Virus record (IMG/VR): IMGVR_UViG_3300006853_000001
Length of the DNA: 64,000 bases
DNA from: a virus
Strand: one strand, 5' to 3'
Positions 13,620 through 42,503 of this stretch are shown here, in pieces. The position numbers and the translations under genes are program-made. Position 1 is the first letter of the stretch. Every line of letters starts with the position of its first letter. The notes beneath the pieces were generated by a model. It saw nothing but the letters and a program-made list of their open reading frames with translations, made no database searches and was not told the DNA's origin.

Positions 13620-14411
13620 GTGATGAAGTTGCTGCAGAGATCAACGCACGTCGACGGCGTAGAGATCATCGAGCGGAGGCCCGCCGAGGGTCCTCACCCC
13701 CACCCCCGCTTCAACGGCAAGATCGTATCGATAACGCACGCCAACCACCTACTGCTCGCCGACGAGCGGGAGCTCTACGAGTGCGATCACTGCGGGTGGC
13801 GTCACGTGAACCTCAAGTCTGTGGTCTCGCACATGCCCGCACACTCTCCGACCAAGAACGCCCCCGACTACCCGGTCGACGTCCTGCGCACCCTCGTTCA
13901 GCTGGTCCGGGACTTCGAGAGTCAGCACGTTCGTGGTAAGTGCGAGAAGACCGCGGCCGAGCTGAACCGGCGCGGCGTCCCGCGTCGTGACGGCCGACCG
14001 TGGAACGGCCAGAACGTGTCACAGCTGTATCGCACGCACATGGACAAGTTCCGGAACCGGCCGTCCCGTTCACTCCGACCGCCGCAGCCGCAGCCGCAGC
14101 CGCAGCCGGATCTGGACACCCAGACGCCCACCACGACTGTAACTTCGGCGACCGAGACCGCCGACGTCGCGCACGCGCCCGACACGGCGCCTAAGGCACG
14201 GCGGCCGCGCCGTACAACACATGTTGACCTCGAGACCCAGACACGTGCCTTGGCGACCCGGGCCGCCGCCGCGGCGCTCCACCTGGCGCAGCTCGAGCAC
14301 GACCTGCTGGAGCTTGCAGACCGCGTCGCCGTGGCGAGCGCTCACGCCGACTCGCAGGTGCTCGAGAAGGCCGAGAAGTGGGATCAGATGCAGAAGCTGA
14401 TGAATCGTTAG
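13620..14411 (+). CDS. putative DNA-binding protein (C2H2-like finger plus recombinase-domain-like helix-turn-helix)
   Basis: CDHCGWRHVNLKSVVSHMPAH is C2H2-like. AAELNRRGVPRRDGRPWNGQNVSQLY resembles the DNA-binding 'recombinase' domain. There is a PQ repeat (CCGCAG x4 at 14082-14108) and a coiled-coil C-terminus. Confidence 0.45.
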   Translation: MMKLLQRSTHVDGVEIIERRPAEGPHPHPRFNGKIVSITHANHLLLADERELYECDHCGWRHVNLKSVVSHMPAHSPTKNAPDYPVDVLRTLVQLVRDFESQHVRGKCEKTAAELNRRGVPRRDGRPWNGQNVSQLYRTHMDKFRNRPSRSLRPPQPQPQPQPDLDTQTPTTTVTSATETADVAHAPDTAPKARRPRRTTHVDLETQTRALATRAAAAALHLAQLEHDLLELADRVAVASAHADSQVLEKAEKWDQMQKLMNR

Positions 14412-14420: not shown

Positions 14421-15443
14421 TTGCTGTGTATAGTTGAGGGCCCGGACGGCGCGGGTAAGTCCACCCTCGTCGCCGCGGTCGCCGCCGCCCTCCGCGCCAC
14501 GTGTCCCCACGATGATGTGGAGGTCTGGCACGCCGGACCTCCACCTCCGGGCGCGCACCCGCTGGACCTGTACGCCCGGCCGCTGTACGACTATCGGCCG
14601 GGCGTCGGTCGTCACATCATCTGCGACCGGTGGCACGTCGGGGAGTGGGTGTACCCCGCCGTGTTCGGTCGCCCGTCCCGGGCGGATGAGGCGAGTCGCC
14701 GGTGGCTGGACATGTTCCTGCAGGCGCGTGGCGCCCTGTTAGTTCACGTGAACCCGCCGCTGTCACGTGTCGAGGCGCAGCTCCGAGCACGTGGCGACAG
14801 CACGGTTGTCCCCGGACAGCTACCCGAGCTGTTTCTCCGTTATCACGCCGAGGTCGCCCGGTCACGGCTGCGCCGGTGGCACCTGACACACGACAGCTGG
14901 TCGGCGGCCGGCGTCGCCGAGGTGGTTCTCGAGGAGGCACGACGCGCGGAGGATGAGGCTATCCCACTCGGCCGATTCGCCACGTACGCGGGTCCTGCGC
15001 GACCCCACTACCTCCTGCTGGGCGACGTGCGCCACCAGTTGCGCGACCGTGTTGGTTCGTTTTTAACACCTCGGCACAGCGTCGCGTACGGTCCGGCGTT
15101 TGGGCCGTATCCCGGCACGTCAGGCCACTACCTGTTAACGTACCTTCCCGAGGCGATGTTTCACGCCGGCGGCGACGCGGGCATCGGCGTCGCGAACGCC
15201 TGCGACGTGGATGACTGGAAGGATCTGTGGGACGTGCTCGGCGAACCACTGATCGTGACGCTGGGCGTACGTGCGACACGTGAGTTAGGATCATTCGCAC
15301 GAGGCTCGACGCCTCACCCGCAGTACGCACGGCGATTTCACTTTAACGACGCCGTCAGGTACGGTCAAGCGATCCACCGCGCGGGGCGATACGGGGAGCA
15401 CGTGCGTAGGTGGCACGATGTCGATACCACCGGTGAGAACTAA
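14421..15443 (+). CDS. fusion protein: thymidylate/dNMP kinase-like P-loop domain plus UDG-superfamily-like domain
   Basis: The N-terminus has VEGPDGAGKST (Tmk P-loop) and ICDRW (the DR motif). The C-terminus (about aa 185-320) carries UDG-like motifs in the expected order: YLLLGDVRHQ, GPAFGPYPGTSGHYLL, VANACD, IVTLGVRA, TPHPQY. Confidence 0.55.
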   Translation: MLCIVEGPDGAGKSTLVAAVAAALRATCPHDDVEVWHAGPPPPGAHPLDLYARPLYDYRPGVGRHIICDRWHVGEWVYPAVFGRPSRADEASRRWLDMFLQARGALLVHVNPPLSRVEAQLRARGDSTVVPGQLPELFLRYHAEVARSRLRRWHLTHDSWSAAGVAEVVLEEARRAEDEAIPLGRFATYAGPARPHYLLLGDVRHQLRDRVGSFLTPRHSVAYGPAFGPYPGTSGHYLLTYLPEAMFHAGGDAGIGVANACDVDDWKDLWDVLGEPLIVTLGVRATRELGSFARGSTPHPQYARRFHFNDAVRYGQAIHRAGRYGEHVRRWHDVDTTGEN

Positions 15444-15667: not shown

Positions 15668-15682
15668 ATAAGGAGATGCAAC

Positions 15683-16522
15683 GTGGGTGCTCTCATCGAG
15701 ATCGCCAACGGCGTTCGTGGCTACGGCGACTACGTGAATCACGTGCTCAACCGATCACATCCAAGAACCGCGCGCGGCCTGCCGACGCGTGACGCCGGTT
15801 TTACGGTGGTTGTGCTTCACGACGTCACCCAGTCGCTGCCACTCGATGTCGGTCGCCAGGTCAGCACAAAAATCGCGGCGCTGGAGGCGCTTCAACTCGT
15901 TGGAGGTCACTCGGATCCTCGGTCGCTGGTAGACGCCGCGCCGTTCTTCGGCGAGCTGCTGGAGCCCGACACCCGACGGTTTCACGGCGCATACGGCGAC
16001 CGAATTCGCGGCCAACTGGTCCAGGTTGTGACGAAGTTGCGCGAGGACCCCGGCTCACGGCAGGCCGTCATCACCCTGTGGGATCCGTGGCTGGACAACC
16101 AACCGGGCAAGAAGGACTACCCATGCACCGTTGCGATTGGGTTCGAGGTAGTTCGAGGTCGAGGCCTCGACATGAACGTCACCATGCGCAGTCAGGATGT
16201 CTGGCTCGGAACGCCCTACGACTGGTTCCAGTTCTCACTCCTTCAGATGACCGTTGCCCGACTACTTGGGGTCGAACCGGCGCTCTATCATCACACAACA
16301 TGGTCCACACACATCTACGAGCGTGATATCACAAAGCTCGACTGGCTGACCGATCCGCCACCCGCCGAGCATCGAACTCAGCAACCTCACACCGGTGTTG
16401 GAGAGGTTCTCGGCAACCCACACTCGACCACCCAGCGGGCACGTGACCTGCTGTTCGACGCCGTGAAGCCCGATGAGTTGTCCGTCTCCGAGAGGATCTT
16501 GCGTGACTGGCTCACCACCTAG
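15683..16522 (+). CDS. ThyA-family pyrimidine nucleotide C5 methylase/hydroxymethylase (Asp at the Asn177-equivalent position)
   Basis: RQAVITLWDP, YPCT (catalytic Cys148) and MRSQDVWLGTPYDWFQF align to E. coli ThyA SAWN, PCH and QRSCDVFLGLPFNIASY. Codon 16220-16222 (GAC) places Asp where ThyA has Asn177. Confidence 0.7.
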   Translation: MGALIEIANGVRGYGDYVNHVLNRSHPRTARGLPTRDAGFTVVVLHDVTQSLPLDVGRQVSTKIAALEALQLVGGHSDPRSLVDAAPFFGELLEPDTRRFHGAYGDRIRGQLVQVVTKLREDPGSRQAVITLWDPWLDNQPGKKDYPCTVAIGFEVVRGRGLDMNVTMRSQDVWLGTPYDWFQFSLLQMTVARLLGVEPALYHHTTWSTHIYERDITKLDWLTDPPPAEHRTQQPHTGVGEVLGNPHSTTQRARDLLFDAVKPDELSVSERILRDWLTT

Positions 16523-17027
16523 GGTTCGCCCGTCGTGGGACGAGACGTGGCTCGCGCAGGCGCGGGCCATCGGCGCGCGCAGCCTCTGCTCGCGCGCCCA
16601 GGTCGGTGCGGTCATCGTGTCCTCGGACAACAGCCGCACGTGGGTCGGGTACAACGGCGTCCCGGCGGGGTTCGAGCACAACGATCGGCCGTGCGTCGAG
16701 TGGTGCCCGCGCGCCCAGAAGTTTCGGCGCTTTAGCCCGTCATACGACGACTGCTACACGGTGCACGCGGAGGTCAACGCTCTGCTCAAGATGGACCGCG
16801 AGCTGGGTCGCGGCGGCACCCTCTACACGACGGGTGACGTCTGCTTCGCCTGTGCTAAGGTCGTAGCCAACTCGGGTCTGGCGACCGTGGTCGTGCTGTC
16901 GGACGGCCTCGCCGCCCACCGCAAGCCCGACGACACGTACCGGTTTCTCGAGAGGTGTGGGTTATCGGTCATCGTGCACACCGGTAACCTATCCGGTTCG
17001 GGTCCCGTGGTCACGTATAACGCGTAG
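16503..17027 (+). CDS. dCMP deaminase (cytidine/deoxycytidylate deaminase family)
   Basis: The zinc motifs HAEVNAL and CFACAKVV are present, and WDETWLAQA is a typical ComEB/dCMP deaminase N-terminus. GTG 16503 follows GAGAGGA; ATG 16473 is an alternative start. Confidence 0.75.
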   Translation: MTGSPPRVRPSWDETWLAQARAIGARSLCSRAQVGAVIVSSDNSRTWVGYNGVPAGFEHNDRPCVEWCPRAQKFRRFSPSYDDCYTVHAEVNALLKMDRELGRGGTLYTTGDVCFACAKVVANSGLATVVVLSDGLAAHRKPDDTYRFLERCGLSVIVHTGNLSGSGPVVTYNA

Positions 17028-17036: not shown

Positions 17037-18863
17037 TTGATCCTCGATGATGTCGAACTTCACCTCGTCAACTCACTGGATGAGGTGCTCGCCTTCAGAG
17101 AGTGGCTCGGCCGGCGCCGCGAGAACGATGCGATCGCCTTCGACACGGAGACGTCGGGTCTGGATACGATCCGTGACCGAGTTCGCCTCATCCAGTTCGG
17201 CGACGACGCGGCGGGGTGGGCGTTCGACCGGGATGACTGGCTCGGCGTGGCCCGCTGGGTGTTCGCCAACTGGCAGGGCGACCTCATCGGACACAACGCG
17301 CCGTTCGACACGTCGATGCTGGCCAACTCGTGTGGTATCGAGGTGCCGCGTCACCGGACTCATGACACGATGGTGCAGTCACGAGTCAACGAGTCACACA
17401 TGTCGATGGCGCTCAAGTCACAGGCGGCCCGCCACGTGGACCCGCGCGCCGCCGGGCTGCAGCTCGAGCTCGGCGGCACGGGCTTCGACTGGGCGACGGT
17501 ACCGGTCGAGTTCCCCGAGTACTGGACGTACGCCGCGCTGGACCCGGTGCTGACGTACGCTCTGGATGGCTACCACCGACCGCGCGTCCTGTCCGAGGCG
17601 CCCGCGGCGTACGACCTGGAGATGGCCGTCCTCTGGGTGGTCGAACGCATGCGAACCTACGGTACCCGGGTGGACGTGCCCTACGCGCAAGAGCACCACG
17701 GTAAGTTGGAGCGGTACTGCGAGAGCGTGGAGCGGTGGTGTCGAGACACGTACCGGGTCAAGCCCGGCTCCAACGCGGCGATCGTAGGTATCCTCGAGGA
17801 GGAGGGCTACCGCTTCTCGAAGGCGACCCAGGCCGGCGCGAAGTCGCTGGATGCCGAGGTGCTGGAGGGCATCGATCACCCGCTAGCGACGGCCGTCCTC
17901 GGTCGCCGGCGCGCCCAGAAGATGTCATCCACGTACCTCCGGTTCTACGTCGAACGCTCAGACGTGAACAGTCTCATTCACCCGTCGTTCAACACACTGG
18001 GCGCCCGAACGTCGCGTATGTCGTGCAGCGACCCCAACCTGCAGAACCTGCCGCGCGCCGGCTCCACGCCGTTCGCCGACCTGGTGCGTAACTGTATCGT
18101 AACGCGCTACGGTCCCTGGGATCCCAACCTGACCCCGGTTGCGAACGCACTCACACACGGCTGTCTGATCATGTGCGACTTCGACCAGATCGAGATGCGG
18201 CTGCTGGCGCACTTCGCGCAGGAGTTCGCGATGATCGAGGCGTTCAAGCTGCCGCAAGACTTCTTCGTGACACTTGCTCGCCAGATCTACGAGGATGAGA
18301 CAATCACTAAGCAGGACAAGCGCCGCCAGATCACCAAGAACGCGGGTTACGCCAAGATCTACTCGGCAGGCGTTAACAAGTTCGCCCAGACCGCCGGGAT
18401 CCCGGTACCACAGGCGCGTTCGTTCCTCCAGCGCTTCGATCAGCTCTACCCGGGTGTGCGGCAATTTCAAGACACCGTTCTCGAGCTAGCCTTGGGGCAG
18501 CAAGCCACCGAGGGCATCGCGTACGCCCGGTCACCCTTCACCAACCGCCGGTACGTCGCGGATCGCCGCAAGGAGTATGCCCTCATCAACTACCTCACCC
18601 AGGGTGGTGCGGCCGAGATCAACAAGATGAAGCTGGTGCAGCTTGACGCGGCCGGTCTCGGCCCGTACATGTTCGCGACCGTTCACGATGAGGTACTGCT
18701 CGACGTACCCGGCGAGCATGTCCTCGACGCGGTGCACATCCTACAGAAGATCATGAATGACGACCAGATGCTGTCGGTGCCGATCACCGCGTCCGTGTCG
18801 TTCGGCGAGAGGTGGGGGTCCAAGCTCGACTGGAGTGAGCAGCACGCGCAGGTCGCCGCGTGA
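17037..18863 (+). CDS. DNA polymerase I (family A) with 3'-5' exonuclease domain
   Basis: The exonuclease motifs are AFDTETSGLD, HNAPFDTSML and YAALDPVL. The polymerase motifs are A (CDFDQIEMRLLAH), B (RRQITKNAGYAKIYSAG) and C (ATVHDEVLLD). Confidence 0.9.
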   Translation: MILDDVELHLVNSLDEVLAFREWLGRRRENDAIAFDTETSGLDTIRDRVRLIQFGDDAAGWAFDRDDWLGVARWVFANWQGDLIGHNAPFDTSMLANSCGIEVPRHRTHDTMVQSRVNESHMSMALKSQAARHVDPRAAGLQLELGGTGFDWATVPVEFPEYWTYAALDPVLTYALDGYHRPRVLSEAPAAYDLEMAVLWVVERMRTYGTRVDVPYAQEHHGKLERYCESVERWCRDTYRVKPGSNAAIVGILEEEGYRFSKATQAGAKSLDAEVLEGIDHPLATAVLGRRRAQKMSSTYLRFYVERSDVNSLIHPSFNTLGARTSRMSCSDPNLQNLPRAGSTPFADLVRNCIVTRYGPWDPNLTPVANALTHGCLIMCDFDQIEMRLLAHFAQEFAMIEAFKLPQDFFVTLARQIYEDETITKQDKRRQITKNAGYAKIYSAGVNKFAQTAGIPVPQARSFLQRFDQLYPGVRQFQDTVLELALGQQATEGIAYARSPFTNRRYVADRRKEYALINYLTQGGAAEINKMKLVQLDAAGLGPYMFATVHDEVLLDVPGEHVLDAVHILQKIMNDDQMLSVPITASVSFGERWGSKLDWSEQHAQVAA

Positions 18864-25303: not shown

Positions 25304-26434
25304 GTGAAGATACTCATGCTGGTGCCTAACTTCTGGATCTCAGGCACCGTCACGCACATTCGCGAGCTGACGCTCGGCTGGCCGCCGGAGTGGCCGACGC
25401 CGCCGATCGCCGTGCCCACGCGTTCCGGCCGACCGTCCGGTAAGTGGGGACGCGACATCGCCGACGTGAAACGCGCCGACGCGACGACGTGGCGCCCGGA
25501 CCACTGGGGCACACCCGCCGAGATCGCACACCTGGCGCGTAACTTCGATCTCGTACACGTCAACGAGGCGGAGACGACACCGAGCTCGCAGGAGTGGTGG
25601 TACCAGACGCTCGAGCTCCTCGAGACGCCGTGGACGCTCCAGCTGAACGGAAACCTGTATCCGACCGTCAACTGGGACCGTATCCTCCGCTCGCCGCGCT
25701 CTACGGGCGTCATCTGGCAGACCCCGGGCAACGTGCCCGAGGCGCTCGTCCGTGACGACCGCGCGACGCTGGTGCCGCTATCTCGTCCCTGGAACCTGCG
25801 GTCGGCGACGTATGATCCTCCGGCCGGACCTGGAGGTGATAAGCCGCCGCTGGTCGGCTTCCACGGTCGTCTCGCGCCGGACAAGGGTGTGGCGCACGTT
25901 GCCGCGCTGGCCAAGCACCTCGACGTCGATGTCTGTCTTCACGGCGCGTCGCCGGGTGGCGGCTACCCCTACGCCTACGGTCTTCAACACACGTACCTCG
26001 GCGACCGGAAGTTTCGCGCGGAGGAGCCGTGGACCGCGCCTGATCTACCTCTACACTACGAAGGTCCCTACGGGGAGGGTTACGATGTGTCGCTGCATCA
26101 CACCGTGCACGTGTCGGCGACGCGTCTGGGCTTCTCGGCGGGTACCGAGTTCGCCCTGCTGGAGGCCATCGACGCGGGTTGTCGGATCGTCGTACCGGAT
26201 CACATGACCGAGCCCGCGACGCTCGGCGTGCTGCGGCAGTGGACGTACCCGTGGGAGCCGCGCGGCCTCAAGACCGCGCTGTCCGGCGAGCTGCGGTCGC
26301 TGAGTGAGGCGGTAAACCACGCGCTATACGTATCGTCATATGACGCCTCGCACAACCGGCAGGTGCTCGCTACGCACCACAACCCCGCCGCACTGGCCTG
26401 TGCGTTCTTCGGCGTCGCGGCATCCCGGATCTAG
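25304..26434 (+). CDS. GT-B fold glycosyltransferase (GT4-like)
   Basis: The N-terminus is MKILMLVPNF. LVGFHGRLAPDKGV is present, and the C-terminus has an E-x7-E-like motif (GTEFALLEAIDAGCRIVVPD). Confidence 0.65.
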   Translation: MKILMLVPNFWISGTVTHIRELTLGWPPEWPTPPIAVPTRSGRPSGKWGRDIADVKRADATTWRPDHWGTPAEIAHLARNFDLVHVNEAETTPSSQEWWYQTLELLETPWTLQLNGNLYPTVNWDRILRSPRSTGVIWQTPGNVPEALVRDDRATLVPLSRPWNLRSATYDPPAGPGGDKPPLVGFHGRLAPDKGVAHVAALAKHLDVDVCLHGASPGGGYPYAYGLQHTYLGDRKFRAEEPWTAPDLPLHYEGPYGEGYDVSLHHTVHVSATRLGFSAGTEFALLEAIDAGCRIVVPDHMTEPATLGVLRQWTYPWEPRGLKTALSGELRSLSEAVNHALYVSSYDASHNRQVLATHHNPAALACAFFGVAASRI

Positions 26435-26450
26435 AACGGAGGTGATAAGT

Positions 26451-27806
26451 ATGCGTGTTGGGTACGGAAAGATAGGAAGATCGATGCCGCTCAGCATCAC
26501 GAAGTGCGGTAGTCTCGGCGGCGACGTGGAGATGGCCGCGACGATCGGCGAACTCGCGCGGCGCAACCCGGAGTCAGACTTCTACCTCATCGGAAAGAAC
26601 AGCGGCGAGGAGCCCACGTCGGTCGGCCTGCCGAGCAACGTGCACAACCCGTGGATCAAGTGGGGTCCGCAGCTGCTCGACGCCAAGCGCCGTACCGGCT
26701 TGAATCACGCGAACTACTCCGTGGCCGACCACCTCGCTCTGCAAGACATCTATGACTCGGTAACGCTCGACTTCATAACGAAGCTCGACGGCATCGTACT
26801 CTGGGCCGGCCAGCACGGTACGACCAACGTGCCGCTGCCCGGCGTACGTGAACCCGGTAAGTACACCAAGCCACACGACTGGTCGGCGCACTACGTCGCG
26901 TTTCTGACACGAGCGATCAACATCTGGCGCGACGTCAACCCGTGGAAGCGCGAGGAGATCTGGCTCAACTCCGATCCGCGCAACTACCTCAAGTTACGCG
27001 ACCTCAAGTGGCCGCTGCGTCACCCGGTGCTCGCACAACACACGTATCATCACAGGATCAAGCACGCGCGGTACGGAGACCCGGGCCCGAACGGCGCTTT
27101 TGAGGAGTGGTCTGCCACGTGCGACCTCGGCGTCGAGACGCCGAGCGATGTCGATAAGGTGTGGAAGGCGTCCGTGCGGAATGTATACGCCCGGTTGGAG
27201 GTCAACGGTCTCTTGCCCAGCACACCGTTCGGCGACCTGCTGTCGTTCAACGACCGCTGGGAAGATCGCGCGGGGTTCGGCCTCTTCATGAATGAGACGC
27301 GACGCTACGTGCGCCAGGACATAACCCGGTCACACGTAATGCGTGAGTGGGTACTACCACTGGAACCGGCGTGGATTCACGGCACGTGGTCACAGGCCGG
27401 CCAGGAGGAGATCAACCGCGAGATCACCCCGGCACCGTGGGGCGACTACGTACCTAAGCTTCACTCCGTACGCTGTACCTTCACCTCACCGGCCAGCGGC
27501 ACCGGCTGGGCCACGGCTAAGCCGTGGGAAGCGTTCGCGGCCGGTACCGTGTGCTTCTTTCACCCCGGCTACGACGTCCAGGATAACATCCTCGGCGACG
27601 CACCGTTGTGGTTGAAGGACTGGCTGCGCGTCACCTCGCCCGACGAGTTGGTACACCGGGTTAAGCACCTCAGCTCAGACGCGGGTCGCACCGACTGGTA
27701 TGAGCTCGTAGCCGCCCAGCGCATACACTTCAATGACGCCGTTCGGGAGTTACGCTTTGCCCGGCTGATCGAAGCGCGCCTCGGGCTGCGAGGTACCGGT
27801 GACTAG
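26451..27806 (+). CDS. glycosyltransferase resembling T4 DNA beta-glucosyltransferase (GT63-like)
   Basis: By-eye alignment to T4 BGT gives four matches. MRVGYGKIGRS aligns with MKIAIINMGNN. IWLNSDPRN aligns with YLFTDIRL, the catalytic Asp100. NETRRYVRQ aligns with GSFRSGQRE, Arg191/Arg195. AKPWEAF aligns with LRVWETM, Arg269/Glu272. The spacings are similar. ATG 26451 follows GGAGGTGA. Confidence 0.55.
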   Translation: MRVGYGKIGRSMPLSITKCGSLGGDVEMAATIGELARRNPESDFYLIGKNSGEEPTSVGLPSNVHNPWIKWGPQLLDAKRRTGLNHANYSVADHLALQDIYDSVTLDFITKLDGIVLWAGQHGTTNVPLPGVREPGKYTKPHDWSAHYVAFLTRAINIWRDVNPWKREEIWLNSDPRNYLKLRDLKWPLRHPVLAQHTYHHRIKHARYGDPGPNGAFEEWSATCDLGVETPSDVDKVWKASVRNVYARLEVNGLLPSTPFGDLLSFNDRWEDRAGFGLFMNETRRYVRQDITRSHVMREWVLPLEPAWIHGTWSQAGQEEINREITPAPWGDYVPKLHSVRCTFTSPASGTGWATAKPWEAFAAGTVCFFHPGYDVQDNILGDAPLWLKDWLRVTSPDELVHRVKHLSSDAGRTDWYELVAAQRIHFNDAVRELRFARLIEARLGLRGTGD

Positions 27807-28593
27807 GGGATCGTCGGGCGCCACGTTCCGGTACTACCTCGAGAGCGTCGGCAAGATGTGCCGGACGGACGACGGGCGTACATCACGCCAGGGACTGTGG
27901 TTACGTCAGCACCAGTCTCCCGCCGTTCCGAAGGTACTGTCGGTATATGAGCACGGCTACCAGATGGAGCGGCTCGACGACATCTCTTACATGTGGTTAA
28001 ACCACCGTGTGGTGCTCGCCGGGATCGTGGAACAACTCGAGCAGCACGTGTGGTCACAGTCCGCCGAGGTCGAGTGGTCACAGCAGGCGACGGTCGACAA
28101 GGTGGCAGACCTACTCGGAATGTTCGACGTCGGTGTTGAGGTTCAGCTGTGGCTGGAAAAGACGCACGAGTCGATCGACTGGAACGCACTTCCACGGTGC
28201 CTAACGCACGGCGACCCGACGCTGGACAACGTGATGTTTAGGCCCGGTACATCCGAACTGGTCATCATCGACCCGGTTCCCGCGACCTCGGCGGTGCCCG
28301 ACATCCGGGCTGTGGACCTCGGTAAGATGCTCCAATCAGCGCTGGGCTGGGAGCGGGTTCGGTACGGCTACCGTGAGGTAACGGGAGCTCTCGACACGCT
28401 CGGTGGCAGTGCGCGAATCAACCCGTACCACGTGCAAACGTACGCGCAAGATGATAACGAGTGGAACGCGGCCGTACTCTGGTGCGTCATTCACCTACTA
28501 CGCACCCTACCCTACCTCGCACGATGTGCGGCACCTAAGGTTCAAGATGACGTGAGAGGCATGATCGGTGACGCAACTACGTTTCTTCCTTGA
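27799..28593 (+). CDS. APH/choline-kinase-fold small-molecule (sugar?) kinase
   Basis: The Brenner motif is present in CLTHGDPTLDNVMF, with the metal-binding Asp in LVIIDPV. Confidence 0.65.
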   Translation: MTRGSSGATFRYYLESVGKMCRTDDGRTSRQGLWLRQHQSPAVPKVLSVYEHGYQMERLDDISYMWLNHRVVLAGIVEQLEQHVWSQSAEVEWSQQATVDKVADLLGMFDVGVEVQLWLEKTHESIDWNALPRCLTHGDPTLDNVMFRPGTSELVIIDPVPATSAVPDIRAVDLGKMLQSALGWERVRYGYREVTGALDTLGGSARINPYHVQTYAQDDNEWNAAVLWCVIHLLRTLPYLARCAAPKVQDDVRGMIGDATTFLP

Positions 28594-29179
28594 TCTGGAT
28601 GGCACACTCGCCGACACCGACGCGCTTAACCGGGAGGCATATCGACGAGTTGGTGTTGAGGTACCGCCGAACGCCGCCGGCTTGTCATACCGTGAGTGGC
28701 TCGGCGATCTGGTCGGTATCGGTGATGTTGAGCGTGTTCACACCGCTAAGCAGGTGTGGTACGGCATCCTGCTGGGTGACGTAGATCCGCACACCTTAGC
28801 TCTGCCGCCGACCCGACTCGCACGTACCCTGCTGTACGGTGATGCTCGGCGGTCGGCGACCGTGTCGTGTCTAACGGCTGCGTCACACGAGTGTGCACGT
28901 ACCCTACTTCGTCGACTAGGTCTAAGCGTACCCGTCAAGCCACAGTTAACGTATGACGCACGACGCGTGATTTTGTCGCGTGCGATGTCCGTCGCCAAGC
29001 ATCGAGGTACCGGTTCCGTGGTATATGTTGATGACATGGGCAGCACCGTCGAGCGACTCACCGAGGACGTTCCGGGTCTCCGGTTGCTGCACTACACCGG
29101 GCAAACCTACGAGCAACTACGCGCCGAGCTCGCCGATGTCTTAGGAGAACTTATCACCAGAGAGTTGAAAACAGCGTGA
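28568..29179 (+). CDS. HAD-superfamily phosphatase/phosphomutase
   Basis: Motif I is FLDLDGTLADTD (DxDxT) and motif IV-like is VVYVDDMG. Confidence 0.7.
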   Translation: MTQLRFFLDLDGTLADTDALNREAYRRVGVEVPPNAAGLSYREWLGDLVGIGDVERVHTAKQVWYGILLGDVDPHTLALPPTRLARTLLYGDARRSATVSCLTAASHECARTLLRRLGLSVPVKPQLTYDARRVILSRAMSVAKHRGTGSVVYVDDMGSTVERLTEDVPGLRLLHYTGQTYEQLRAELADVLGELITRELKTA

Positions 29180-29862
29180 TCGACCACGCCGGGTTGGACG
29201 CCGTGATTCTCGCCGGTGGTAAGAGTGAGCGACTGAACGGGGTGGTACCTCCCTACTTCAAGCCGTTCGTCGTCATCGAGGGCAGGTCGCTGCTGGTCGC
29301 CGCGGTGGATAGCGCGCTGGCGATGGGTGCGCGTCGGGTGATCGTGGTGTCCGCCGGCGAGAACGCCCTGCCGGTGTTTCAACTGGTGGGTCACCGCCCG
29401 GAGATTCGCGTGATGCTGGCCACCGGCGGACCCGGCCGCGCGCTTCGCCGAGGTCTCGAGCTGTGTCAAACACAACGCGTTCTGGTGCTGATGAGCGACA
29501 ACATCCACGGACCCGAGGACGTCTACGCGGTATGCACGGCGGCGAACTACGCGGTCGGCGTGCGAGTCGTTCACCGGGTTGAGGCCGAGAGGTTTACTCG
29601 TCTCCGAGGCGACCGCTGGGTGGAGCGTAGATATGACCAAGACCCGCTCGATGATGAGGTAGCGAAATGGAGCGACGACGCTACACAGGCGGTAACGGTC
29701 TGGTGCGGCCCGCTGGTCATCGACCGGTACCGCGGTCTCAACGCACTGGCCGGCCAGGAGAAGATCGGTCCGGTGCTCAATGAGATGGCGCCCAGCTTCG
29801 CGCTGGTACACGTGTTAACGCAGGATATCGGCACGCCCGACGCGGTACGCCGGGTGACCTAG
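29176..29862 (+). CDS. nucleotidyltransferase (MobA/IspD/sugar-phosphate NTP-transferase fold)
   Basis: AVILAGGKSERL is the LAGGxGxRL signature, and VLVLMSDN is present. The start shows a GTGA overlap. Confidence 0.65.
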   Translation: MIDHAGLDAVILAGGKSERLNGVVPPYFKPFVVIEGRSLLVAAVDSALAMGARRVIVVSAGENALPVFQLVGHRPEIRVMLATGGPGRALRRGLELCQTQRVLVLMSDNIHGPEDVYAVCTAANYAVGVRVVHRVEAERFTRLRGDRWVERRYDQDPLDDEVAKWSDDATQAVTVWCGPLVIDRYRGLNALAGQEKIGPVLNEMAPSFALVHVLTQDIGTPDAVRRVT

Positions 29863-29874: not shown

Positions 29875-30057
29875 ATGATGCGAGCAGGTAAGCTGACCCC
29901 GCGCCAGCGCCGGCGCGCGGCTAAGAAGAGTACGGCTGCCGCCGAGCGTCGTAAACACAACTACATCGATCAGCTGATCGAGGCGCGGGCACATCGCGCC
30001 GCGCGTAGGACAATGATAAGTGCAATGCGTGATGCTCGGAAGAAACTGGTGAGTTGA
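29875..30057 (+). CDS. small basic protein
   Basis: 60 aa, rich in Lys and Arg; ATG follows GAGAG. Confidence 0.45.
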   Translation: MMRAGKLTPRQRRRAAKKSTAAAERRKHNYIDQLIEARAHRAARRTMISAMRDARKKLVS

Positions 30058-30569
30058 TGGATCGCCTCGAGGAGATGTTACACGCCCAGCGGGAGCTCCA
30101 GGAGCTGATCAACGGCTACACGCTCGAGAGTCAGTCAGACGAGCTGCGCATCGCGAACATCAAGGAGAGCTACGTCGCGCTTATCAAGGAGCTCGGCGAG
30201 GTTCTGGATGAGATTGGCTGGAAGAGCTGGGCGACCAGTCGTCACATCAACTACGAGGCGGCACGCGGCGAGGTCGTTGACTGCTGGCACTTTCTCATGA
30301 ACCTCGCGCTGCACCTTAACGTGACCGCAGATGACCTGTACGAGGGCTACCGCCGAAAGCGTGAGAAGAACGAGCGACGCCAGCGCGAGGGCTACGACGG
30401 TGTGACGGGCAAGTGCCCGCACTGTCGACGGTCGTACGATGACCAAGGAGTCCGGTGCACCCCGTCGTGTGTCGCGACCGGCGGAACGCCGGCCTGGTGC
30501 GTGGAAGCCGGTCGGCTGGTCGGACCCGGTACACTCTCCGCTACATCAGAAACCACCCACAACACCTGA
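30057..30569 (+). CDS. all-alpha NTP pyrophosphohydrolase (MazG / dimeric dUTPase-dCTPase family) with Cys-rich tail
   Basis: Contains ALIKELGEVLDEIGWKSW and EVVDCWHFLMNLA, the paired acidic helices typical of the family. The C-terminus has CPHCRRSYDDQGVRCTPSC. Confidence 0.6.
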   Translation: MDRLEEMLHAQRELQELINGYTLESQSDELRIANIKESYVALIKELGEVLDEIGWKSWATSRHINYEAARGEVVDCWHFLMNLALHLNVTADDLYEGYRRKREKNERRQREGYDGVTGKCPHCRRSYDDQGVRCTPSCVATGGTPAWCVEAGRLVGPGTLSATSETTHNT

Positions 30570-30582: not shown

Positions 30583-31215
30583 ATGGGAACAAACCCGAGT
30601 CGCAACCGTGGACGCACGGTTAAAGCGTTTCACAAAGCGTACGGTTACGGTCCCTGGTCGTGTTTCTTCTGTGTGATTCCGGTGCTAGAGATTGGGCGTG
30701 GCACATGGAACGGTAACATTCATCACATTGATGATGATGTTACGAATGACACCGCAGATAATCTCGCGATGACACACGTGCTTTGTCACCGAAAACACCA
30801 CGGGCTGTCTGACGTCGCAAGAAGTAAGCTAAGTGATGCGTTTCGCGGACGTGAGTCACCTACGAAAGGTATGCGGTTCTCCGCAGAGGTGAATGCCAAG
30901 AAAGCGCATCACGGATCAGACAATCACCAGTTTAGAAAACCACTACCACTTCACACACGACAAGCTATCAGCCGCGCCAACCGGCGAATGGTGATTTGTG
31001 AAATGTGTGGTGTCGAGATCGCAGCGCACTGGATTCGTCGGCACCAGGCAAGTGGTTGCCAGCCGAAAAAGTGCATCACAGTCAACGGTGTTGTGCGTGT
31101 GCGTGGTATCGAGCCTAAGGTGATCTGCCAGGTATGCGGTAAACCTTATGCATCCCGCTGGATGCAACGCCACAAGGACAACGGAATGTGTGTACCTATG
31201 GACGTGAACACATGA
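30583..31215 (+). mobile_element. HNH endonuclease gene (free-standing homing-endonuclease-like)
   Basis: The HNH core is GNIHHIDDDVTNDTADNLAMTHVLCHRKHHG. Two repeated CxxCG...W..RH fingers are present. GC content is clearly lower than the flanks, and the stop overlaps the methyltransferase start (ATGA). Confidence 0.75.
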
Positions 31216-32482
31216 CATACACCGCGGTGGACGTTCTTGGGTTTGCTGGAGGTTTTACCCTCGGGATGGTCCAGGCGGGCTTTAAACTGGTTGGTAAGAA
31301 GGAACTTCCAGGCGGCTTCGGTGTAGCAAACTGTCTCGCTAATCGCGCACTTCTTGGTAATAGTTGGCAGGCACAGATAGGACCTGCCGAGTCGTGGGAG
31401 GTGATCAGTGGGGGTTGTGATGTTGTATTCGGCAACCCCCCGTAAGACCGTGCTCAGGATTTTCCGTCATGAGCGCCAAGTCATTTCGCGGAGCAAACTC
31501 TAAAGTGAACGCGTGTATGTGGGCATTTGCCGACTACGTCATTCGAGCACGTCCCACGATCGCCGTCTTCGAGAGCGTTCAGCAGGCGCGCAACCGCCCC
31601 GACGGTCTGGATCTCATGCGCCGGCTGCGCGCCCACGTGGAGGAGGACACCGGCGACCGGTGGACGCTCTACCACGTCCGGCACAACGCGTATTCGGTGG
31701 GCGGATGTGCCCAGCGGAAGCGCTACTTCTGGCTCATCTCGCGGGTTCCGTTCGGCGTCGAGGTGCCACAGCCGAGAACACTGCCCGTACTGGCAGACGT
31801 GATAGCAGACCTCGCGCCTCTCGGGCGGACGTGGCACGCGCAGCCGTACCGGGCACCCGTCACACACATGTGGACGGAGCAGCTGCGGTCGGCGTCCGGC
31901 GCAGTGGACGGCCACGTTCACGTCAGCAACCCACTCACACAGCGAGTGGCCGACCTGATCGACGGCTGTGGCTGGGAGCCCGGCGCGTCGCTGGGTGAGA
32001 TCTGTCGCCGGTACTACGAGAAGCACGGCCGGCTACCGGCGTCGATGGCACAGGGTGAGGCTAAGATCGTCGCCAACGACTTCGCGATGGGTTTCACGAC
32101 CGTGACGCGCTGGCGCGGCGAGCAGCCGGCGCGCGTCATTACCGGCGCGTCGCTGCAGCTGGTCATTCACCCGTGGCTCGACCGCATGATCACACACCGT
32201 GAGGCCGCGCGCATCCTCGGCTTCCCGGACGACTGGCTGATCAAGCCACTGCGCGGCGTCAGCGGTCTCAATCTCACGTGGGGAAAGGGAATATCTGTGC
32301 ACTGCGGCCGGTGGATCGGCGGGTGGATCGCCCGCGCGCTGGACGGCAACCCCGGCACTCACGTAGGATCTCTGATCGGCGAGCGTGAGTATGATATCGA
32401 TGTGACGCACGCCTGGAAGAGCGCCGTCTCGCGCAGCAGCGTGGTCGCGCGAGACGATACCGCTGTAGATGTGCTAATGTAG
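31212..32482 (+). pseudogene. DNA (cytosine-5)-methyltransferase, reading frame broken at a C6 tract just before the catalytic Pro-Cys
   Basis: Motif I is VLGFAGGFTLG. The frame ends ...VVFGNPP-TAA at 31443. The -1 frame continues PPVRPCSGFS (motif IV), then FESVQQ (ENV-like), QRKRYFW (QxRxR), THREAARILGFPDDW and GKGISV. The C run is at 31436-31441. Confidence 0.75.
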
Positions 32483-37805: not shown

Positions 37806-38924
37806 TCAAACACGGTACCGGGCAACCTCTCCGGCCAACCTACGCTCGGTCTCGAACGCGTCGGCCCAGGCCTCCGCCCAGCGCCACGTGTTGCCCTCCG
37901 TCGTCCAGTTCGCCGCGATTTCGCGTCCTCGACCAGACAGTTCATCACGTGCGTCACGACTCTCGACCAGAGACCTCAGATGCCGTAACCAACGCTTCGG
38001 TTTATCTGCGATCAGACCTACGCCCAGCCGGTGAAAGCGTAAGTACTCCGGACTCGGCGACGCGACCCACGGCACACCCAGCGCCGCGTACTCCAACGGC
38101 TTGAGCCACGACTTTCCGTCGTTGAATTTCGTCGCCGCCAGCGGTGCGACTCCGACGCCCAGTTTAGCGACCTCCGCAGGCCAGCCGACCAGCGGATCCT
38201 GCGGTCCGGTGTTCGTAGGCTCGACATCCAGCCGTAGCGCGTCCCGGACCCCGATGCCGTCACCTACCACGTGGAACGGCGTTCCGGTGTCTCGAGACAA
38301 CTGAGCTAGTGCGGTTCCCGTTGCCTGAAGGTCATCCGGGTGAGAGTGCGTTGAACCTGCCCAACCTACTACCGTCGAGTCTACCCGCTCGACCGCGAGA
38401 TAGCGCGCCGGCACACAGTTGTACAGGATCCTGCCGCGTCCGTGCGGTGCATACCGCGTCAGCAACGCGTCCGTGGACACGGTGACGAAGGTGGCCTCCT
38501 CGCACGCTCGCTGGGCGTACTGCCAGTTATGATCCTTGCTTGCGCCGAAGACCGGGTGCATGGCGGCAAACGCGGGATTGTTCGGATTCACAGCGGCGAG
38601 GTCGTCGTCCATGTCGATCACCACTGCGATGCCACGCCTACGCAGCATGCCGATCGCATCCACCAGGTGCTTGTGTGTGATGCGTTGCAAAATGATCATA
38701 TCGGCGTCCTCGGGTACCTGGACGTCTACGAGTTTACCGTCCGCGTCCACCCGTCCCTGGAACGCGGCGTTTCGATCCTTGGGCATAACAATGACAACGT
38801 CGTGTCCGTCTGCATGAAGCTGTCGTGCGGGCCATATTAGCCGGTGATACCCACACCCGTGTTCATCGGCGGGATACACGTACGTTTTCACAGGTTGTGT
38901 CCACCTCTCCGCGTAATCCACCAC
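37806..38924 (-). CDS. GT-B glycosyltransferase (group 1-like)
   Basis: Contains VGWAGSTHSHPDDL, FHVVGDG and KFNDGKSWLKPLEYAALGVPWVASP. It is a paralog of the gene at 41514-42500. Confidence 0.65.
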   Translation of the reverse strand: MVDYAERWTQPVKTYVYPADEHGCGYHRLIWPARQLHADGHDVVIVMPKDRNAAFQGRVDADGKLVDVQVPEDADMIILQRITHKHLVDAIGMLRRRGIAVVIDMDDDLAAVNPNNPAFAAMHPVFGASKDHNWQYAQRACEEATFVTVSTDALLTRYAPHGRGRILYNCVPARYLAVERVDSTVVGWAGSTHSHPDDLQATGTALAQLSRDTGTPFHVVGDGIGVRDALRLDVEPTNTGPQDPLVGWPAEVAKLGVGVAPLAATKFNDGKSWLKPLEYAALGVPWVASPSPEYLRFHRLGVGLIADKPKRWLRHLRSLVESRDARDELSGRGREIAANWTTEGNTWRWAEAWADAFETERRLAGEVARYRV

Positions 38925-38979
38925 GTGAGTGCGAGAATCACGACGCCGAGTAGAGCTCCTAGCGCTACTTGCCCGGTCA

Positions 38980-39576
38980 CTACCACCTGTCCGGCCTTCC
39001 CGAGGTGTTCTTGCCGTCGTGGTTCCAGATCCACGTCACCTCAGGTACGTGGTGAAAACGCGCACCGGCGTCCAGCAACCGGACGTAAAAGCCCCAGTCG
39101 TCGTAGTCGATCTCCACCCCGACCGGCGGCCCGAATTGTGCGCTGCACGCGAGCTCCGATCGCACCAGACTGGTCACCGGGATATACGACTTCTCACGCA
39201 GTAGCGCGGCAGAGAACTCCTGACCGAAGCGTCCCCACTCCTCCCGGAGAGGTATCTCATTTTCGTCCTTATCCAAGACCTGGCAGCCCGAATACACGAC
39301 GTCGGAATTGGTTAGCTCGGCAGCCTCCAGCAGCACGTTCACGTGATGCGACAGCCACCGGTCATCATCGTCCAGAAACGCGACCCACTCGGTGTCCACG
39401 CGTGACAGCGCACGGTTTCGCGTCGCGGCCGAGCCGGTGTGCTCGACGTCCACCTCGACGGCGATGGCGGTAACCCGCTGAGTCTGAACCGCCACGCTCT
39501 TCACCGCCGTCGCCAGGGCGTTGGGTCGGGTCGGGATGTGCGGGATGACCGCCGTAACGTCTCGCGGAAAGTTCAC
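38980..39576 (-). CDS. GT-A (family 2-like) glycosyltransferase, tandem paralog 1
   Basis: Contains VTAVIPHIPTRP, SAATRNRAL and WVAFLDDDD (DxD). The C-terminus is SGRPDRW. Confidence 0.65.
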   Translation of the reverse strand: MNFPRDVTAVIPHIPTRPNALATAVKSVAVQTQRVTAIAVEVDVEHTGSAATRNRALSRVDTEWVAFLDDDDRWLSHHVNVLLEAAELTNSDVVYSGCQVLDKDENEIPLREEWGRFGQEFSAALLREKSYIPVTSLVRSELACSAQFGPPVGVEIDYDDWGFYVRLLDAGARFHHVPEVTWIWNHDGKNTSGRPDRW

Positions 39577-39579
39577 GTT

Positions 39580-40149
39580 CTACCACCTATCAGGTTGTCC
39601 AGAGGTATTGTGTCGGTTGTGCCGCCAGATCCACGTAACCTCGGGGACGTGTGTGAACTGTGCGCCGGCGCGAAACGCACGCTGCTGAAAACCCCACTCA
39701 TCCCACTCGTTCGTGAACTTAACCCGCTGTGCCAACTCGGTACGCACCAGCATCGTAACGGTGATGTAAGGTCGAACGAACAGCAGCTCCGGATCGAACG
39801 GCTGACCGAACGGGTTCCACACCACCTCGTTGGCCTCGTTCGTGACGATGCAGTTTGTGTAGACGACATCAGCTCCGGTCCGCTCCGCGTGATCCAGCAG
39901 CGTCTCGATGTGATGCGGCAACCAGAGATCATCGTCGTCGAGAAACGCCACCCACGACGTGTCTGCTGCTGCCAACGCGCGCGTGCGCGTCACAGCAGAT
40001 CCCTCGCGCTGTGTGTCCACGGCGATGCTGATCCCACGCACTGAACGGCTCTGCGCGGTGACGCTCTCCAGCGCCTGCACCAGTACGTGCGCCCGCGGCG
40101 GTACGCTGGGGATCACGGCTGTGACGTCGCTCGGAAAGCTTGCTACCAC
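39580..40149 (-). CDS. GT-A (family 2-like) glycosyltransferase, tandem paralog 2
   Basis: Contains VTAVIPSVPPRA, SAVTRTRAL and WVAFLDDDD. The C-terminus is SGQPDRW. Confidence 0.65.
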   Translation of the reverse strand: MVASFPSDVTAVIPSVPPRAHVLVQALESVTAQSRSVRGISIAVDTQREGSAVTRTRALAAADTSWVAFLDDDDLWLPHHIETLLDHAERTGADVVYTNCIVTNEANEVVWNPFGQPFDPELLFVRPYITVTMLVRTELAQRVKFTNEWDEWGFQQRAFRAGAQFTHVPEVTWIWRHNRHNTSGQPDRW

Positions 40150-40712
40150 CTAGTAGCCAGTCCGCTGGTGTTACCGGAGTGCACCGCGTAACACCACGTG
40201 ATATCACCGGTACCTATGAACTTACCACCTAGCTCGAGACATCGCAACGTGAATCGCCAGTCCTCACCGGGCCACACGTCATTCTCGTCCTCGTGGTTTC
40301 GGAAGCCGGCCTCACGGGCCAGCTCCGTTCGCACCATGACGGTCATCGTTGTGTGGTGCGGATCGGACGGATTCATCTGCCGTCCCCGGTGCATCGGAAA
40401 CGGGTTGTTGCCGTCAAACCACGAGTAACAGTATGACGCGTCGTGATCTGCGGCTAGCTTCATCAGCGTCTCGAGGTGATGTGGGTAGAAGTAGTCATCA
40501 TCATCCAAGAACGCCACCCACTCCGTACGCACGGCATCCAGCGCACGCTGCCGGGTAGCCGCGGCACCCTCCTTCAACACGTCTAAGGCGCACGAGATGC
40601 CGCCGGATGGTTGCCTAGTCTGGTCCTTGACGCTCTGAACGGCACGGTTGAGGAGACCGCCGACGCGCGGCGGAATGGTCGGCAGCGCGACTGTGACCGA
40701 AACCTTACTCAT
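40143..40712 (-). CDS. GT-A (family 2-like) glycosyltransferase, tandem paralog 3
   Basis: Contains VTVALPTIPPRV, AAATRQRAL and WVAFLDDDD. The C-terminus is SGLATRW. ATG 40712 follows GGAG; the ORF track start at 40763 overlaps the upstream gene. Confidence 0.6.
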   Translation of the reverse strand: MSKVSVTVALPTIPPRVGGLLNRAVQSVKDQTRQPSGGISCALDVLKEGAAATRQRALDAVRTEWVAFLDDDDYFYPHHLETLMKLAADHDASYCYSWFDGNNPFPMHRGRQMNPSDPHHTTMTVMVRTELAREAGFRNHEDENDVWPGEDWRFTLRCLELGGKFIGTGDITWCYAVHSGNTSGLATRW

Positions 40713-40713
40713 C

Positions 40714-41001
40714 CTAGCTCCACTCATAGTCCACGACAGCCCCACCCTCATCTCGCACGACACCCGTCGGTTTATCGATCGACGAAAGTGTGTTCGACAG
40801 CTCTACACGCAAGTCGGCTGCCAACTTCGGCAGGCCCATCTCGCACGCGTCGGCGTAGGCGTTTAACGCTGCCCGCGCGTATGGGTCGTGCACGTAGTCC
40901 AGGACGAAGTAGCGGGCGCCGGCCTTGTCACCGCCGGGGCGATCTCGGCCGTCGACCCGTTGAACACGGTACCTACTCTGCAGACCGTCGTTCTCACTCA
41001 C
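40714..41001 (-). CDS. hypothetical protein
   Basis: GTG 41001 overlaps the upstream stop (GTGA). The 95 aa product contains ARYFVLDYVHDPYARAALNAYADA. Confidence 0.45.
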   Translation of the reverse strand: MSENDGLQSRYRVQRVDGRDRPGGDKAGARYFVLDYVHDPYARAALNAYADACEMGLPKLAADLRVELSNTLSSIDKPTGVVRDEGGAVVDYEWS

Positions 41002-41513
41002 GCCCACCTCACTCCACTCACGACGCACTGCCACGCCGGTCCCCGGTACGCGATCGGCCAGTCCGGCGGCACCGTATGCATATACACCTCGGATACCTCG
41101 CACCATCCCGCATCCCGCATCATATCGATGATCTTGCCTGGTGTGCACTCCCAGTGGTGCACGTCTCCGCTCCAGCGCCCGGCACCGTCGCGCAACTCTC
41201 CCAGGGTAATGTCAATAAGCGTTCCCGCGTCGGCCATCGCCTGCGCGCGGTCGAGGTCTGGCCCTACGACGAGCAACTGGCCACCCGGCACTGTGCAGTC
41301 GAGCAGCCGCGTTAGCAGGGCGACGCACTGCTGTGGCATTAGGTGTTCCAACACGTGGCCCGCGTAGATGCGTTCGATCGTCAGTGGCGCCCACGGCAGC
41401 TCGCCGGTGAGGTCGACCTCCAGGTCCTTCGGGTGCGGAGAACCGAAGTCGACGTTAACCCACCCCGGGGCGTACTGGTCACCGCAGCCGAGATTAAGTC
41501 TCACAGCTAGCAC
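40998..41513 (-). CDS. class I SAM-dependent methyltransferase
   Basis: Motif I is LNLGCGDQYAPGWVNVD, followed by IYAGHVLEHL. Confidence 0.65.
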   Translation of the reverse strand: MLAVRLNLGCGDQYAPGWVNVDFGSPHPKDLEVDLTGELPWAPLTIERIYAGHVLEHLMPQQCVALLTRLLDCTVPGGQLLVVGPDLDRAQAMADAGTLIDITLGELRDGAGRWSGDVHHWECTPGKIIDMMRDAGWCEVSEVYMHTVPPDWPIAYRGPAWQCVVSGVRWA

Positions 41514-42500: not shown

Positions 42501-42503
42501 TTT

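Follow-up and report, generated by a model that had tools for sequence, protein, structure and literature searches.

We analyzed an open reading frame (ORF) of the ThyA superfamily in the IMG/VR virus record IMGVR_UViG_3300006853_000001, within a stretch of 64,000 nucleotides, hereafter called the window, which represents 64 kb of a contig of ~103.5 kb. The ORF (15683-16522, + strand, 279 aa) begins with a GTG start codon, and a Shine-Dalgarno-like AAGGAG (15670-15675, + strand) can be read in the sequence 7 nt 5' of this start. Its product is probably a folate-dependent deoxycytidylate (dCMP) 5-hydroxymethylase, i.e. a 5-hydroxymethyl-dCMP (5hm-dCMP) synthase, which would act as gp42 of T4 does and belong to a different lineage of the thymidylate synthase (TS) superfamily. 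According to the original prediction, an Asn177-to-Asp substitution makes this ThyA homolog act on dCMP rather than on deoxyuridylate (dUMP). This predicted preference finds support in the sequence, in the predicted structure and in genome comparisons. The nature of the product had been left open, and the evidence presented here points to 5hm-dCMP over 5-methyl-dCMP (5m-dCMP).

Active-site residues of the ThyA homolog

The product of ORF 15683-16522 matches the Pfam family Thymidylat_synt (PF00303; E=1.3e-23, 83.9 bits for a cutoff of 24.3) and four PHROG "thymidylate synthase" families. Its active site was compared with residue codes established on characterized members of the superfamily. 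Lee et al. (2026, PMC13326640) list 12 residues within 6 Å of C5 of dUMP. Among them, residue 177 determines which base is recognized, Asn going with dUMP and Asp with dCMP; residue 143 shows a correlation with the product, being Leu where a methyl group is made and Asp or Glu where a hydroxymethyl group is made; and a change of Asp169 to Asn marks the newly discovered flavin-dependent 5-hydroxy-dCMP synthases. Asp at the Asn177 position has been tied to cytosine nucleotides by mutagenesis and structures (Liu & Santi 1992 and Graves et al. 1992, both as cited in PMC13326640), and also by Zhao et al. (2016, PMC5175136). According to Liu & Santi, again through the citation in PMC13326640, a TS becomes a dCMP methylase when this Asn is changed to Asp. 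Zhao et al. further report that deoxyribose-preferring enzymes have Ser167 and Arg126', and that MilA and BcmA, which prefer cytidylate (CMP), have Ala and Lys.

The position of these residues in the query was established with three alignments: phmmer with solved ThyA and MilA chains, MAFFT with the reference enzymes, and a family-wide MAFFT. To guard against gap artefacts, columns 142-147 were counted from the catalytic Cys and columns 165-169 from Arg166. The catalytic nucleophile, Cys148 (TGC, 16124-16126, + strand), occupies an invariant column and aligns with E. coli Cys146 in all three alignments. Asp180 (GAC, 16220-16222, + strand), to which cytosine specificity is attributed, falls on the E. 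coli Asn177 column in all three and is not moved off it by a proper alignment with the reference enzymes. The original prediction had noted the retained catalytic Cys, placed the Asp on this column and assigned both codons, and it was exact in each respect. Three residues before Cys148, Asp145 (GAC, 16115-16117, + strand) occupies the Leu143 column; the residue that follows Cys148 is Thr149, which is likewise Thr in T4 gp42 and MilA and is His in ThyA. Ser170-Gln171-Asp172 of the MRSQD motif (16190-16198, + strand) place Ser170 on the Ser167 column and Asp172 (GAT, 16196-16198) on Asp169 of E. coli ThyA. Finally, Arg126 (CGG, 16058-16060, + strand) lies on the Arg126' column of E. coli, a marker of deoxyribose preference which is Lys in MilA.

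At columns 143, 147, 165, 169 and 177 the query therefore reads Asp145, Thr149, Met168, Asp172 and Asp180. This C5-proximal signature (L143D, H147T, Q165M, D169 kept, N177D) is that of verified T4 gp42 (5hm-dCMP) and of MilA (5hm-CMP), both of which have Asp, Thr, Met, Asp and Asp. The same columns are Leu, His, Gln, Asp and Asn in ThyA and T4 td, which make thymidylate (dTMP); Asn, Pro, Leu, Asp and Asp in the Xp12 and PaMx74 enzymes (5m-dCMP); Asp, Asn, Asn, Asp and Asn in the SPO1, M6 and ViI-like enzymes (5hm-dUMP); and Glu, Thr, Met, Asn and Asp in the enzyme of AV110 Mosigvirus (5-hydroxy-dCMP type). The T4 gp42 reference sequence is 100% identical to PDB 1B49, and on it we confirmed that the equivalent residue of T4 dCMP hydroxymethylase is Asp, as had been stated. 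The AV110 protein annotated "deoxycytidylate 5-hydroxymethyltransferase" was dropped as a gp42 reference in favour of this verified sequence: with Asn in place of Asp169, it is of the 5-hydroxy-dCMP-synthase type. Trp80-to-Phe was also discarded as evidence of hydroxymethylation, T4 gp42 having kept the Trp.

The signature extends to the whole family, on the basis of 267 retrieved relatives: Asp is found at column 143 in 261 of them, and columns 169 and 177 are Asp without exception (267 of 267). Since every relative has Asp at this position, Asp180 is neither a chance event nor a sequencing error. Read together, the residue codes support the prediction of a cytosine base, a deoxyribose sugar, folate one-carbon chemistry and a hydroxymethyl product.

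A third signature was observed in two cultured actinophages: Asp at the Asn177 column, Trp80 kept, Ile143, Met147 and Gln165. It is carried by Microbacterium phage Johnathan gp59 (locus L014, 1180-2091) and Curtobacterium phage Shayna gp69 (locus L015, 1171-2064), both annotated as thymidylate synthases. Together with a dihydrofolate reductase (DHFR) gene lying near that of Johnathan, this signature suggests dCMP methylation, and hence DNA with 5-methylcytosine (5mC), in those phage clusters.

Fold, phylogeny and distribution of the family

The AlphaFold2 model of the product, built from a 60-sequence alignment, has a pLDDT of 96 and a pTM of 0.94. Its best PDB matches are all MilA entries, which superpose from end to end, C-terminal helices included, with a TM of 0.82, compared to TM ~0.6 for thymidylate synthases and 0.67 for the dCMP hydroxylase of phage HY126. 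The C-terminus of the query is unrelated to the ThyA tail (…PHPxIKAPVAI) and is helical, as in MilA. The NCBIfam TS equivalog models that score best give the query 57-64 bits where their cutoffs demand 108-327, and in all eight models hit the score stays below the cutoff. In a simple neighbour-joining tree of 125 well-aligned columns, with moderate support, the query family groups with MilA and with the dUMP hydroxymethylases of SPO1, M6 and ViI (71% bootstrap), and canonical TS are joined by the Xp12-like enzyme (85% bootstrap). It seems, from these comparisons, that the predicted enzyme works like gp42 yet comes from a separate branch of the hydroxymethylases.

Relatives of the query are numerous: 624 were found at E<=1e-10 among 5.8 billion proteins, and 254 at E<1e-30 in a search of cluster representatives (50% identity clustering). 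When 4.5 kb were compared by megablast with 50,697 phage records, no match was obtained, so that there is no near relative from which annotation could be transferred. Among deposited phages the closest is Actinomycetia phage DSL-LC01, derived from a metagenome-assembled genome, whose ThyA homolog is 45% identical to the query. The order of the module is kept in DSL-LC01 and in every metagenomic contig inspected: kinase-like gene, ThyA homolog, dCMP deaminase, PolA, SNF2 helicase, PD-(D/E)XK nuclease and AAA_24. At the equivalent position DSL-LC01 also has a glycosyltransferase, a UDP-galactopyranose mutase and a MazG-like enzyme.

The family includes a cultured member, Gordonia phage GMA2 (NC_070761.1, 103,424 bp), in which Orf73-Orf72-Orf71-Orf70 encode a thymidylate kinase, a "thymidylate synthase", a small ORF and a dCMP deaminase. 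Orf72 (73712-74554, 280 aa) is 43.5% identical to the query over 154 aa and has the Asp143/Thr147/Met165/Asp169/Asp177 signature. GMA2 also carries a GT-B glycosyltransferase (Orf54) and encodes a genuine ThyX (Orf44, 44075-44773, motif RHRHLSYSQLS). Because this true ThyX is present besides it, the Asp-type enzyme is no spare copy of a thymidylate synthase; a phage with two enzymes of that name makes sense if one of them makes no dTMP. The GMA2 paper makes no mention of DNA modification, and literature searches on GMA2 DNA chemistry gave nothing relevant; GMA2 offers a ready experimental system for the question of 5-hydroxymethylcytosine (5hmC) in this family.

We also searched for a second TS and for DHFR, the negative results covering the window. 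As originally reported, no second ThyA or ThyX is present in these 64 kb: a six-frame hidden Markov model and phmmer scan finds only ORF 15683-16522, and Pfam scans of ~45 window ORFs detect no ThyX. Six matches to the RHR-x7-S motif of ThyX were rejected, all of them being in non-coding frames or inside PolA. A DHFR profile matched nothing in the window, nor in the ~88 kb that make up five syntenic loci of the query family.

Neighbouring genes, proposed pathway and alternative explanations

Directly upstream of the ThyA homolog, in the window as in every relative inspected, lies a gene (14421-15443, + strand) for a protein with a dTMP-kinase-like P-loop domain (residues ~1-130) and a conserved domain of ~170 aa, a candidate deoxynucleoside monophosphate (dNMP) kinase for 5hm-dCMP. 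It matches PHROG 761 "thymidylate kinase" (2.6e-10), has weak Pfam and NCBIfam P-loop matches, and aligns from end to end with the "thymidylate kinase" of DSL-LC01 at 29% identity. Its C-terminal domain (residues ~170-340) has no match in Pfam, NCBIfam or PDB sequences; this domain is kept in DSL-LC01, where it ends with a PHPQY motif, and is absent from the 263-aa kinase of GMA2. On the other side, again in every relative inspected, the ThyA homolog is adjoined by a zinc deaminase of the dCMP deaminase family (16473-17027, + strand; Pfam dCMP_cyt_deam_1 3.8e-16, PHROG 174 1.3e-32), the start of which is possibly 16503 according to the call in another assembly. The similarity to the Xp12 and PaMx74 deaminases is distant (E about 1e-9 to 1e-14) and gives no basis for predicting its substrate from theirs. 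A family A DNA polymerase with a 3'-5' exonuclease follows (17037-18863, + strand; DNA_pol_A 2e-61, DNA_pol_A_exo1 4.4e-15).

Two more distant genes complete the set. A 376-aa glycosyltransferase (25304-26434, + strand), modelled by AlphaFold2 with a GT-B fold and a pLDDT of 90, is a candidate DNA (5hmC) glycosyltransferase. Its Foldseek matches in the PDB are GT4-type enzymes and the T4 alpha-glucosyltransferase bound to DNA (1y6g, 1xv5; TM ~0.6), and its structural neighbours include 5ze7 and 7qsg, two entries also given by Lee et al. (PMC13326640) for the predicted DNA glycosyltransferase of RL38JI. In the viral library BFVD it matches the glycosyltransferases of Gordonia phage GMA2 and SP-15 and proteins named "DNA alpha-GT". 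We found no more than 18 homologs; the two contigs inspected (L010 and L011) have it together with the ThyA homolog, and further homologs lie on contigs whose lengths agree with those of contigs known to bear the ThyA gene. The other gene encodes an all-alpha nucleoside triphosphate pyrophosphatase of the dimeric-dUTPase/MazG-like type (30054-30569, + strand), a candidate dCTPase/dUTPase (Pfam dUTPase_2 5.7e-17, PHROG 18650 4e-40, PDB 1w2y 3.4e-7; 34% identity to the MazG-like protein of DSL-LC01), whose relatives are confined to actinophages.

From the fold, the active-site residues and their conservation throughout the family, the gene order and the structural neighbours, we infer the substrate, the product and the following pathway. 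Cys148 would attack C6 of dCMP, and Asp180 would hydrogen-bond or protonate N3/N4 of the cytosine, so that dUMP is excluded. C5 would take the methylene of 5,10-methylenetetrahydrofolate (CH2-THF), a cofactor partly held by Asp172. Elimination of tetrahydrofolate (THF) would then be followed by addition of water to the exocyclic methylene, and we propose that having Asp145 in place of the ThyA residue Leu143 lets this water in or activates it. The products would be 5hm-dCMP and THF; no dihydrofolate (DHF) being formed, DHFR would not be needed. The dTMP-kinase-like enzyme and the host nucleoside diphosphate (NDP) kinase would convert 5hm-dCMP to 5hm-dCTP, which the phage PolA would put into DNA. 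Possible substrates of the pyrophosphatase of the dUTPase family are dCTP and dUTP. Through the dCMP deaminase some of the dCMP would be channelled into dUMP, to be used for dTMP by the host enzyme or an unseen ThyX, and the GT-B glycosyltransferase would decorate 5hmC in DNA. The phage thus probably swaps cytosine for 5hmC in its DNA, a known anti-restriction trick.

Several points weigh against this explanation. The rule on position 143 is a correlation drawn from a handful of verified enzymes, and the Asn143 of the verified methylases differs from Asp by a single functional group. The family never groups with T4 gp42 in the tree, simple as that tree is (0 of 100 bootstraps; phmmer E=1e-4), so it is not a gp42 ortholog and the function is transferred by signature, not by close homology. 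Tight linkage to a dCMP deaminase is a reported hallmark of 5mC phages (10.1101/2024.12.05.627091). Furthermore, the GT-B enzyme could act on something besides DNA, the pyrophosphatase is only a candidate dCTPase/dUTPase, a C5-cytosine DNA methylase such as the one discussed below would be pointless if every C were 5hmC, and the function assigned to the family is an in silico prediction throughout.

The linkage to the deaminase was reported in the MetaGPA study (10.1101/2024.12.05.627091, a preprint), in which a dCMP deaminase lies within 3 kb of the ThyA homolog in 70% of the metavirome contigs selected for modified cytosine, compared to 6% of unmodified ones, with DNA_pol_A and DNA_pol_A_exo1 among the commonest co-localised domains, the same architecture as in the window. 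Five of the seven deaminase-linked ThyA homologs tested there made 5m-dCMP, which makes an Xp12-type dCMP methyltransferase the main alternative, a serious one, though unlikely in our estimation. Such an enzyme would use CH2-THF as carbon and hydride donor to make 5m-dCMP, and the deaminase would turn part of the 5m-dC pool into dTMP/dTTP; the authors of the study propose that the deaminase makes dTTP from 5m-dCTP. Supply of both 5mC and T by this pair would explain why no second TS is seen in the window, the adjacency of ThyA homolog and dCMP deaminase is the pattern of 5mC phages, and Asp at the Asn177 column is common to Xp12 and PaMx74. Other residues differ: the verified methylases have Asn143, Pro147 and Leu165 where the query has Asp145, Thr149 and Met168. 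They also have a TS-like C-terminal tail (…PKPEVIE in Xp12/PaMx74), as opposed to the MilA-like helical C-terminus of the query, and the Xp12-like enzyme branches with true TS, the query family with hydroxymethylases. In GMA2 the same enzyme type coexists with the phage's own ThyX, which leaves a bypass from 5mC to T unneeded. The glycosyltransferases that accompany the module, i.e. the window GT-B with its T4-AGT-like neighbours and the DSL-LC01 glycosyltransferase with its UDP-galactopyranose mutase, suggest a hydroxyl acceptor. Finally, DHFR adjoins the methylase-type enzymes of Xp12, PaMx74 and RDJL Phi2 and lies near that of Johnathan (4 of 4 examined), which fits methyl transfer, a reaction that makes DHF; none was found in the window or the five syntenic loci. 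In Xp12 and PaMx74 the DHFR gene is directly downstream of the deaminase. DHFR linkage may be a simple genomic marker distinguishing methyl- from hydroxymethyl-transferring ThyA homologs, with the caveat that a host DHFR could replace a linked one. The absence of a linked DHFR speaks only indirectly for 5hm-dCMP and THF as products. The DHFR genes are located as follows: Xp12 gp57, L012 3846-4334; PaMx74 frd, L013 4261-4728; RDJL Phi2, L017 2804-3328. The Xp12 gene is labelled "hypothetical protein", its identity appearing in a note only.

Other C5 chemistries or substrates appear very improbable. A flavin-dependent 5-hydroxy-dCMP synthase of the RB69 gp48/DLP3 gp80 type would have Asp177 and an acidic residue 143 in common with the query, but the diagnostic D169N is absent, Asp172 being present in 267/267 relatives. 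MilA is the closest solved structure, which would fit a CMP hydroxymethylase like MilA or BcmA; yet the ribose markers of MilA, Ala176 and Lys133, are Ser170 and Arg126 in the query, and the gene stands in a DNA-replication module near PolA. Barely credible is a genuine thymidylate synthase, converting dUMP to dTMP in a dTTP-supply module of dCMP deaminase, TS and thymidylate kinase. The TS fold, the Pfam threshold passed, the kinase-TS-deaminase gene order resembling the dTMP pathway and the name "thymidylate synthase" given to relatives by JGI and GenBank all agree with it. However, the query and practically every one of the 267 relatives have lost Asn177, His147, Gln165 and Leu143, and replacement of the first by Asp is the change which makes a dCMP methylase of TS; the NCBIfam equivalog scores fall well short of their cutoffs, the ThyA C-terminal tail is lacking, and GMA2 has the same enzyme type beside a true ThyX. 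A dCMP hydroxymethylase remains, for us, the probable function.

Other genes of the window were recorded. A C5-cytosine DNA methylase gene (31188-32482, + strand) is broken at catalytic motif IV: the frame with motif I ends …DVVFGNPP-TAA after a C7 run (31435-31441), and the next frame reads …RPCSGFSVMS…. In the relative L011 (18801-20084) the sequence is …GNPPCS-TGA-RSGWSVMS… within one same frame. Two phages therefore have two different lesions at one spot, with the downstream ORF of ~336 aa intact in both; the gene may be decaying, may contain a recoding site or may encode an enzyme in two pieces. A translationally coupled cassette (27799-29862, + strand), conserved in L011 (15741-17705), encodes in order an APH-like kinase (27799-28593, + strand, 264 aa), a 203-aa protein with no matches and a MobA/IspD/GlmU-like nucleotidyltransferase (29176-29862, + strand, 228 aa). 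Like the C-terminal domain of the kinase-like protein, the cassette proteins gave nothing specific in Pfam, PHROGs, NCBIfam and PDB sequence searches. The layout of the cassette suggests activation of a small molecule as an NDP derivative, possibly a donor for DNA or virion modification. A rather doubtful extension of the pathway is that the hydroxymethylase-deaminase pair feeds two modified pyrimidines, part of the 5hm-dCMP being deaminated to 5hm-dUMP: both C and T would be wholly or partly replaced, and the hydroxyls would be decorated by the GT-B enzyme and this cassette, giving an undescribed hypermodified DNA, the first in actinobacterial phages.

The protein of ~450 aa encoded just after the AAA_24/DUF669 recombination genes (26340-27806, + strand) is without known domain and shares contigs with the ThyA homolog; it was rejected as a modification enzyme, having >500 homologs at 52-70% identity and behaving as a core gene. 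Beside apparently structural genes, the region 37806-43739 (- strand) contains three GT2 and two GT1-like glycosyltransferases and an NDP-sugar C-methyltransferase (Methyltransf_13/14), a cluster which may serve glycosylation of virion proteins rather than of DNA. A 372-aa protein (62838-63956, - strand) has a C-terminal ADP-ribosyltransferase exoenzyme domain (ADPrib_exo_Tox, E=8e-25), and a 263-aa protein (13620-14411, + strand) contains a (Pro-Gln)5 repeat, PPQPQPQPQPQP, and a weak C2H2 zinc-finger-like match.

Significance and comparison with known systems

The residue-177 rule and the deaminase/ThyA/PolA neighbourhood have already been used to mine metaviromes (10.1101/2024.12.05.627091), and the kind of enzyme proposed here is already known. 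The enzyme belongs to a lineage distinct from T4 gp42 and to a phage group, the actinophages, for which our literature searches found no report of 5hmC DNA. Nothing is overturned, the residue rules and the pathway logic being established. If the function is confirmed, a large uncultivated group of actinobacterial phages of ~60-105 kb (at least 254 representatives at 50% identity clustering, including the cultured GMA2) would make 5hmC DNA, probably glycosylated. This would bear on restriction and CRISPR evasion and on the behaviour of phage DNA in sequencing and cloning, and the "thymidylate synthase" labels of databases would be wrong for hundreds of proteins. The family is also a possible source of dCMP hydroxymethylases and DNA glycosyltransferases for 5hmC biotechnology.

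Among known enzymes, T4 gp42 (EC 2.1.2.8; PDB 1B5E/1B49) is the same as the query within 6 Å of C5 at Asp143, Cys146, Thr147, Met165, Arg166, Ser167, Asp169, Gly173 and Asp177. It differs in that the query has Phe for Trp80, Gln at the Arg127 column and a helical C-terminal extension of ~60 aa, and in that gp42 belongs to T-even coliphages and the query to phages of actinobacteria. The predicted pathway follows the logic of T4, with a kinase, a pyrophosphatase, a deaminase and a glycosyltransferase. The correspondence is as follows: gp42 with 15683-16522, the gp1 dNMP kinase with 14421-15443, the gp56 dCTPase/dUTPase with 30054-30569, the cd dCMP deaminase with 16473-17027 and alpha/beta-gt with the GT-B gene at 25304-26434. 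Only td and frd are without counterpart in the window.

MilA, the CMP 5-hydroxymethylase of Streptomyces rimofaciens (PDB 5JNH/5B6D/5B6E), has the same five-column pattern and groups with the query family in the tree. The only differences at the compared positions are its Ala176 and Lys133', which favour ribose, in place of Ser170 and Arg126 in the query. MilA acts in antibiotic biosynthesis, not in phage DNA replication, and its closeness hints at a link between the phage enzymes and a nucleoside-antibiotic pathway of Streptomyces. The dUMP hydroxymethylases (SPO1 gp29, M6 and ViI-like) are the best-scoring characterized phage homologs (E about 1e-17 to 1e-20). They have Asp143 as in the query, and those of SPO1 and ViI also have Gln at the Arg127 column, but Asn177, Asn147 and Asn165, which go with uracil specificity, set them apart. 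The Xp12/PaMx74 enzymes share with the query Asp177 and the tight linkage to a dCMP deaminase; of their residues Trp80, Asn143, Pro147, Leu165 and Asp177, only the last is common. The MetaGPA homologs, with dCMP_cyt_deam_1/MafB19-deam beside Thymidylat_synt, DNA_pol_A and DNA_pol_A_exo1, obey the same residue-177 logic, and the members tested are of the methylase type, unlike the hydroxymethylase type predicted for the query.

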